DNA of 64,000 bases, from sequence record OL960580, one strand, 5' to 3'. Position 1 is the first letter of the stretch. Each line of letters opens with the position of its first letter. Origin of the DNA: Escherichia phage vB_EcoM_SA21RB. The position numbers were made by a program, and so were the translations under genes. Below are positions 37,604 through 38,670 of this stretch, piece by piece. Below the pieces are notes generated by a model that was given only the letters and a program-made list of their open reading frames with translations, searched no databases and was not told the DNA's origin.

Positions 37604-38464
37604 TTATACCGCCATTTTACCTTTAATTGGCGGATGAGATACATAGTTGTTAAGAACAAAATTATGCGGCTTTGCGAATTGACTCAACCAAAATACCTGC
37701 GATTCTGTGTCCCATTCATCAAATTCATCTGGAAATTTTAATTGTAATTCGCATAAATCCATAGGTTCACGACGTAAAATTTCTTTACATTGTTCTACGT
37801 GATTCATATAGATATGAGTATTACCACCAGAAAATATCAAATCTCCTGGAATAAGATTACACATCTTAGCTACAATATGAACTAACGTAGCATATGATGC
37901 AATATTAAATGGAAGACCGAGGAAAACATCTACCGAACGTTGATACCACTGCAAATCCAAATAGCCATTACGCACATTAAACTGATAGAACATATGACAA
38001 GGTGGCAATGCCATCTGCTTGAGTTCTGCCGGATTCCATGCTGAAACAATTTGACGTCTATCATTTGGCAGTTTTTTAATACGATCAACAACTTCTATAA
38101 TTTGGTCTACACCACCAAAATCGCGCCATTGTTTTCCATAAATTGGACCAAGTTCACCACTATGATATCCTAAATCTTTTGCTTGATTTTCATAATTTTC
38201 ATCCCAGACTGTTTTGCCTTGAATTAATGAATCATGTTGAATTAATCGCAAATCATTGACATTTGTGCTTCCCGATAAAAACCATATTAGCTCAGCAATG
38301 CAAGCTTTCCAGGCGAGCTTCTTAGTCGTTACTGCAGGAAAACCTTTAGTTAAATCCCATCGTAATTTAGTGCCGAACAAAGCAATTGTTCCTGTGCCTG
38401 TTCGGTCATCGGTTTCATAACCGTTTTCCAGGATATCTTTAATTAAAAATTGGTATTGTTTCAT
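37604..38464 (-). CDS. td: thymidylate synthase (uninterrupted, no intron)
   Basis: 286 aa from [26 protein letters not shown]...; catalytic LPPCHMFYQF; continuous reading frame. Confidence 0.93.
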   Translation of the reverse strand: MKQYQFLIKDILENGYETDDRTGTGTIALFGTKLRWDLTKGFPAVTTKKLAWKACIAELIWFLSGSTNVNDLRLIQHDSLIQGKTVWDENYENQAKDLGYHSGELGPIYGKQWRDFGGVDQIIEVVDRIKKLPNDRRQIVSAWNPAELKQMALPPCHMFYQFNVRNGYLDLQWYQRSVDVFLGLPFNIASYATLVHIVAKMCNLIPGDLIFSGGNTHIYMNHVEQCKEILRREPMDLCELQLKFPDEFDEWDTESQVFWLSQFAKPHNFVLNNYVSHPPIKGKMAV

Positions 38465-38670
38465 TAGTTCATCCAAGAATATGTAGAAGGATATTTGGCA
38501 AAGTTAGGCTTATATCCTAATTTAACCATTTGTTTTGCTTTGCGAGTAAATCCTAAAGAACGCTCACCTTTAAGATATTGTTTTGGTGTCATAGGCCCTT
38601 GATGCATCTGCCGACAAATAAAAAGGGCCATAGCATTAGGAACATCCTTAACTTTTAATTTATTGCTCAT
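38464..38670 (-). CDS. small basic hypothetical protein inserted between frd and td
   Basis: 68 aa; ATGA overlap with the frd stop and 1-nt overlap with the td start (translational coupling). Confidence 0.5.

Follow-up and report, generated by a model that had tools for sequence, protein, structure and literature searches.

Is the small open reading frame that separates the genes for dihydrofolate reductase and thymidylate synthase in Escherichia phage vB_EcoM_SA21RB an insertion into a conserved nucleotide-metabolism operon, as an initial annotation of this DNA proposed, or does it belong to a site that varies among T-even phages? The window, by which we mean the whole stretch of 64,000 nucleotides analysed, comes from a Tequatrovirus: it matches Shigella phage ESh26 at 97.5% identity over 18 kb around the site, and Shigella phage SH-1 at 99% over 607 nt around the frame. 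The genes concerned lie on the minus strand, which the initial annotation left unstated. The frame, here called ORF68, occupies 38464..38670 (stop codon included), starts with ATG and encodes a basic protein of 68 aa; its translation was reproduced as originally given. Upstream in the operon is frd, encoding dihydrofolate reductase (38667..39251; DHFR_1, E 1e-18), and downstream is an intronless td, encoding a thymidylate synthase of 286 aa (37604..38464, ATG at 38464; Thymidylat_synt, E 5e-94). The overlaps described for both ends can be read directly in the sequence. At the first, the ORF68 ATG (38670..38668) and the frd TGA (38669..38667) overlap as ATGA (38667..38670); at the second, the ORF68 TAA (38466..38464) and the td ATG (38464..38462) have one base in common within TAATG (38462..38466). 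No paralog of ORF68 was found elsewhere in the 64-kb window.

The pattern of substitution indicates that ORF68 is a genuine protein-coding gene under purifying selection. Against the Marfa and CIP9 orthologs, dN/dS was about 0.15 with dS of about 0.9-1.2, and comparison of the Tequatrovirus/Dhakavirus, Marfa and CIP9 copies with one another gave 0.13-0.25 at dS 0.8-1.45; substitutions favoured third codon positions (10/7/21, for example). The protein aligned with the phrog_9550 HMM from end to end (residues 1-68 on profile positions 1-68, E 1.3e-45), and a homolog from phAPEC8 matched the same profile (E 3e-39). When 1.84 billion cluster representatives were searched exhaustively with the family profile, only 11 clusters emerged, all of proteins 70-96 aa long, which have in common an N-terminal M-[SK]-[NG]-x-K-x-K-V..P motif and an LGYKPxY core. 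By tblastn, ORF68 was found in 237 phage records, 235 of which hold it in one piece covering at least 80% of the protein, and the reading frame is thus intact in nearly all relatives. Its carriers belong to several Tevenvirinae genera, but also include phAPEC8-like phages, which are unrelated. ORF68 is already in databases as a hypothetical protein and is an accessory gene of an ordinary kind; neither td.1 (see below) nor any other gene located between frd and td came up in a literature search.

In public records the gene takes several forms. It is present but unannotated in JS98 (locus L011, 4215-4416) and JS10 (L007, 2501-2707), and is without an annotated CDS in SH7 (KX828711), where the 607-nt region differs by 1 nt in length. 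ACG-C40 (L021, 2079-2207) has it annotated short, as 42 aa from Met27, NCBI lists a 42-aa version for IME339, and in PYPS2T (L025, 2001-2207) it is mislabelled 'flagellar biosynthesis protein'. The long form of 68 aa is supported by the conservation of residues 1-11 as far as the phAPEC8 homologs. In Shigella phage sb4 (L024, 2001-3067) both genes are broken, ORF68 being shortened to 53 aa and td annotated as two CDS; the sb4 cassette is only 95.6% identical to that of the window, and the broken genes probably reflect a sequencing or assembly error rather than pseudogenisation.

The frd-td junction was then compared across T-even phages. In T4, as the initial annotation had stated, frd and td are directly adjacent, with a direct 4-nt overlap and without ORF68, which many relatives of T4 carry. 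At this junction the window and its relatives are longer than T4 by exactly 206 nt, with coupling-type overlaps at both ends, and the indel separating T4 from ACG-C40, G3F9 and PYPS2T is clean, with flanks 96-98% identical. To this extent the proposal of an insertion holds. As a description of the locus it is misleading, because the empty junction of T4 is the exception. That junction was found in at least 31 records (T4 strains, RB55, RB59, vB_EcoM_112, HY03 and a few others), a lower bound owing to the seeding requirement of the junction-spanning query, and the junction of RB69 (Mosigvirus) is also empty. In T6, RB6 and ECML-134 the same slot is filled by a 115-aa gene, named td.1 in the T6 record AY262134, whose product matches phrog_1928 (E 8e-36). 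Approximate counts among some 565 Tequatrovirus-type records are 350 for td.1 and 135 for ORF68, with at least 31 empty. A query in which td.1 and ORF68 were concatenated matched 511 records, none of which covered both halves; an evenly spaced sample of these was about 70% td.1-type and 30% ORF68-type. The two alleles have the same frd and td flanks and unrelated inner sequence. Their mutual exclusion needs no functional cause, since there is no internal homology for ordinary recombination. Four states of the slot were shown: empty, the phrog_1928 gene only (X, as in td.1), ORF68 only, and X and ORF68 in tandem. In the phage collection searched, the direct frd/td overlap of T4 is a minority state of a variable slot.

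The tandem carriers bear on the age of ORF68. They are Marfavirus (Marfa), Kanagawavirus (CIP9), Serratia phage 4S and two metagenomic T4-like contigs (L031 and L032), in each of which the order is frd, one or two phrog_1928 genes, ORF68, td. ORF68 always abuts td in these genomes, by an overlap of 1 or 4 nt, and its stop/start overlap geometry recurs in SsoM_113, Marfa, 4S, CIP9, L031 and L032. DNA identity between the older lineages and the window is 80, 72 and 68% for ORF68, and 68, 71 and 72% for td. Since ORF68 has diverged about as much as td, long vertical co-inheritance of the two fits these values, and at the depth of Marfa, CIP9 and 4S the comparison identifies ORF68 as an old td-linked gene, not a novelty. 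As far as an unrooted comparison allows, the tandem arrangement is probably old, and the X-only, ORF68-only and empty states would therefore be derived. Two tandem phrog_1928 paralogs precede ORF68 in CIP9 (L004, 1826-2504) and in L031 (2332-3004). The td.1 protein of T6 is closest to the first CIP9 paralog (45%), which suggests that copy as the ancestor of the td.1 allele of Tequatrovirus. The phrog_1928 protein itself had no Pfam or PDB match and carries no informative name. Its gene, solely within T4-like phages, is the only conserved neighbour of ORF68; none is common to the remote homologs.

T6 may show how the empty state arose. The flanks of the slot are 96.6-96.9% identical between T4 and T6, and the td.1 cassette of T6 (L027, 1925-2336) consists of a 20-nt spacer, a 348-nt ORF and a 44-nt spacer, the latter with TATAAT-like and AAGG motifs before td. 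The octamer AAATGAAA borders this cassette on each side, and deletion between its two copies yields exactly the T4 junction (L001, 9110-9113). Together with flanks that are about 97% identical, these repeats suggest that the ATGA overlap of frd and td in T4 may be a secondary deletion. The ORF68 cassette of the window is likewise bordered by a repeated pentamer, AATGA, on the minus strand (right copy 38461..38465, left copy 38667..38671), and loss of one copy with everything in between would restore the junction seen in T4. A target-site duplication was considered for this pentamer and rejected: four of its five bases are forced by ATG, TGA and the second td codon, AAA, so that the repeats are not evidence of transposition.

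Against this old background, the allele present in Tequatrovirus and Dhakavirus is young. When the window was compared with JS10 (Dhakavirus), DNA identity was 77% for frd, 97.6% for ORF68 and 76% for td; the sliding identity profile reached a peak of 96-98% exactly over ORF68, and dS was 0.088 for ORF68 as against 1.06 in frd and a saturated 2.45 in td. The comparison was extended to 12 ORF68 carriers over the 3' 560 nt of frd, the cassette and the 5' 540 nt of td; IMG/VR gave 9 loci, and GenBank loci were used instead. Mean pairwise identities for frd, cassette and td, respectively, were 79.8, 97.5 and 77.8% between Tequatrovirus and Dhakavirus (30 pairs), 89.6, 98.9 and 95.7% within Tequatrovirus, and 87.4, 98.5 and 92.6% within Dhakavirus. 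The near-clonal tract of these carriers spans about 242 nt (38429..38670, minus strand), i.e. ORF68 and nucleotides 1-36 of td. The co-transferred first 12 td codons give the Td protein F6 and L12, versus D6 and F12 in T4 and T6. The left limit of the tract lies a few nucleotides from the ORF68 start: Dhakavirus-specific bases reach -3, and in G3F9 and PYPS2T identity with T4 extends to -1. No junction that combined the F6/L12 td haplotype with absence of ORF68 was found in the collection searched. Given that the older lineages show saturation at synonymous sites, constraint at the nucleotide level cannot explain the near-identity. These comparisons support the view that the ORF68 allele of the two genera is much younger than its flanks and was acquired recently by recombination, and the straightforward reading is lateral transfer of the cassette during co-infection. 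Near-clonality alone does not separate positive selection, neutral hitchhiking and some form of drive.

How would a gene placed in this way be expressed? The 22 nt before the ORF68 start are those found before td in T4, but for one A/G difference at -6. The Shine-Dalgarno (SD) sequence at the ORF68 start is weak (-3.5 kcal/mol, spacing 11), as is that of td in the window (-3.1 kcal/mol), and the minus strand from 38400 to 38750 showed no promoter- or terminator-like site. The shared upstream sequence and the weak SDs suggest that ORF68 took over the reinitiation site of td behind frd. Ribosomes on the polycistronic frd-td message would then reach ORF68 by termination-reinitiation: the ATGA that serves td in T4 contains the ORF68 start, and the TAATG at the end of ORF68 would hand them on to td, so that td stays coupled. 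Translational coupling through frd, ORF68 and td is inferred from this geometry, with which weak SDs at both starts are consistent.

Other small genes vary in the same operon. Between frd.1 and frd, the window carries two minus-strand genes that T4 does not have: one for a 110-aa DUF7247/phrog_3566 protein (39508-39840) and one for an 81-aa phrog_3183 protein (39251-39496), the stop of which overlaps the frd start as TAATG. ACG-C40 has the 81-aa gene only, and SsoM_113 has a 119-aa version of the DUF7247 gene. A terminator-like hairpin on the minus strand at 40992-41010 (7-bp stem with 6 GC pairs, followed by a T run) lies just downstream of a gene-32-sized ORF. As it is the sole such site in 37400-41200 on either strand, the genes downstream of it, frd.3 through nrdA, probably form one transcription unit.

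The ORF68 product has a mass of 7.9 kDa, a pI of 10.3, and 13 K+R versus 2 D+E residues. It is confidently predicted to be a compact three-helix protein: with an alignment of 30 sequences, AlphaFold placed helices at residues 13-24, 29-39 and 43-49 (pLDDT 87, pTM 0.66), versus a pLDDT of 57 with a shallow alignment of 12. A Lys-rich N-terminal and a Y/F/W-rich C-terminal extension were modelled with moderate to high confidence. R20, M48, G52 and P55 are invariant in the family, and K4, K6, P11, K34, F41, L51 and Y53 nearly so. An enzyme or zinc protein is unlikely because no acidic, histidine or cysteine residue is conserved. ORF68 and 30 relatives had no match among Pfam, NCBIfam and PADLOC models, and fold and sequence searches found no relative. 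The spacing of the helices recalls a tri-helical helix-turn-helix, but the fold searches gave no support for helix-turn-helix or homeodomain-like folds. A 1402-aa protein (P0026) gave six matches to positions 9-29 of the ORF68 profile (E 1e-8), perhaps as a repeat protein with the first-helix motif, or else through a compositional artefact.

What role these features allow is the weakest step of the account, since the assignment is inferred from size, charge and the lack of catalytic-type residues. Most probably the ORF68 product would have no enzymatic part in thymidylate synthesis and would modulate infection, without being essential, by binding either a nucleic acid or an acidic protein of the host or the phage. 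We prefer an accessory modulator because ORF68 is dispensable, young in these genera and patchily distributed, and because arrays of small genes surround its remote homologs in phAPEC8-like and other large phages. The functional reading favoured here, a non-enzymatic binder, spans counter-defence and nucleic-acid-binding variants, and its rank comes from indirect evidence. Taken as a whole, a dispensable accessory gene, carried by large virulent phages and, in T-even types, placed in a variable slot just before td, translated by reinitiation, spread recently by recombination and predicted to encode a non-essential binder is an account that we hold with moderate confidence.

A more specific version would make ORF68 a counter-defence or host-takeover factor whose near-clonal spread is a selective sweep in a highly recombining population. 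In its favour, the gene is patchy and dispensable, and the cassette is much younger than its flanks both within and between the two genera; phAPEC8-like and other large phages have their homologs in small-gene arrays of a type typical of early regions, and the product is small and basic, with a predicted fold that stands alone. Against it, ORF68 resembles no characterised protein, and the pattern is also compatible with neutral introgression. That none of the 30 family members matched PADLOC is a result on defence proteins, which those models cover, not on anti-defence proteins. We regard this version as unlikely, and we are just as sceptical that the unit of about 242 bp is in an active sweep, driven by a strong advantage of the product or by an inheritance bias that needs no nuclease. 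If such a sweep were true, two phage genera would have been crossed within the time needed for about 2% divergence, and neutralisation of a host defence or hijacking of a host factor would be possible advantages of the product.

Somewhat less probable again is a role of ORF68 as partner or regulator of Td, or of the T4-type dNTP-synthesis complex, made in fixed ratio through coupled translation and binding the Td protein or td mRNA. ORF68 adjoins td with an overlap in Tequatrovirus, Dhakavirus, Marfavirus, Kanagawavirus, 4S and the two contigs, including those genomes in which frd lies one or two genes away; in the older lineages ORF68 and td have diverged in step, and for a basic protein binding to mRNA is conceivable. 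Yet T4, RB69 and about 350 td.1-type Tequatroviruses lack ORF68 and have a very similar Td. The phAPEC8 homolog (10352-10585, plus strand) lies about 35 kb from the thymidylate synthase gene of that phage (45712-46710, minus strand), and other remote homologs lie among unrelated small genes. Residues F6 and L12 of the cassette-linked Td do not occur in Marfa, CIP9 or 4S, a pattern suggestive of hitchhiking rather than co-adaptation. Even so, the constant position beside td in at least five genera may yet point to some role related to td.

Near-identity islands within diverged flanks are expected of the mobile introns and homing-endonuclease genes of T-even phages, and the ORF68 cassette resembles that pattern, with the I-TevI intron about 550 nt away in the td of many relatives; even so, it is highly improbable that the cassette is a selfish element or remnant (a homing-endonuclease gene in decay, a sequence carried along when I-TevI or another nuclease homes, or a functional RNA or DNA element instead of a protein gene), given that ORF68 matches none of I-TevI, I-TevIII, MobE and SegG of T4 and has no nuclease motif, that neither of its only two acidic residues is invariant, that it occurs together with the td intron in at least 58 records versus about 56 expected under independence, that td is intronless in the window and the Dhakavirus carriers, that gene sizes and spacing leave the window without I-TevI, I-TevIII, mobE or segG, and that saturated synonymous sites in the older lineages argue against constraint on an RNA or DNA element.

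Three particular candidates of this kind were rejected. Co-conversion with the td intron and I-TevI was set aside because a chimeric query of ORF and intron showed joint occurrence as independence predicts, and an endonuclease of the GIY-YIG or HNH type, or its remnant, because there was no similarity in motif, sequence or fold. A structured RNA or group I intron was discarded because the best Rfam scores were 17-19 bits versus gathering scores of 36-84. The folding of ORF68 RNA showed no excess over shuffled controls (z 0.37). Elsewhere in the window, nrdB (389 aa) is unbroken and the interval of about 50 nt between it and nrdA is without mobE or nrdB.1 (33561-37046), and the ORFs matching gene 32 and gene 59 are about 100 nt apart, without segG (41033-42694).

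Among known systems, td.1 of T6 is the nearest parallel to the accessory gene proposed here. It occupies the same frd-td slot as a small accessory gene, is restricted to T4-like phages and is found in T6, RB3/RB6, RB32, RB51, ECML-134 and most Tequatroviruses, and its phrog_1928 relatives are the immediate upstream neighbours of ORF68 in Marfa, CIP9, 4S, L031 and L032. It differs in its unrelated sequence, in having spacers of 20 and 44 nt with SDs of its own instead of stop/start overlaps, and in a diversity like that of its flanks (95-99% to T6) and not near-clonal. The small, variable ORFs of the same operon (frd.1, frd.2, frd.3, nrdA.1, nrdA.2 and the DUF7247 and phrog_3183 genes) are also comparable; unlike them, ORF68 has homologs beyond Straboviridae, in phAPEC8-like phages, and a documented recent transfer between genera. 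With the td intron/I-TevI, mobE and segG it shares presence/absence polymorphism at a precise site in or between nucleotide-metabolism genes, and with T-even mobile introns and endonuclease genes near-identical copies across diverged phages, but it has no nuclease, no ribozyme and no linked endonuclease gene in the window. Like a classical moron it is an optional gene between conserved genes; unlike one, it brings neither promoter nor terminator with it and relies on the transcript of the host operon and on putative coupling.

What is new here is the allelic structure of the slot and the recent spread of the ORF68 cassette between genera. Nothing in the locus points to a new type of mechanism. 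The family is tiny, confined to phages and predicted to have a fold without relatives, so any function found for it would be new. For T4 itself, the ATGA overlap of frd and td is to be reread as a minority state in the collection searched and possibly a deletion product. Near-isogenic phages with an empty slot, td.1 or ORF68 offer a clean natural system, in which it can be asked what small accessory genes contribute to a phage and how fast a cassette passes from one genus to another.
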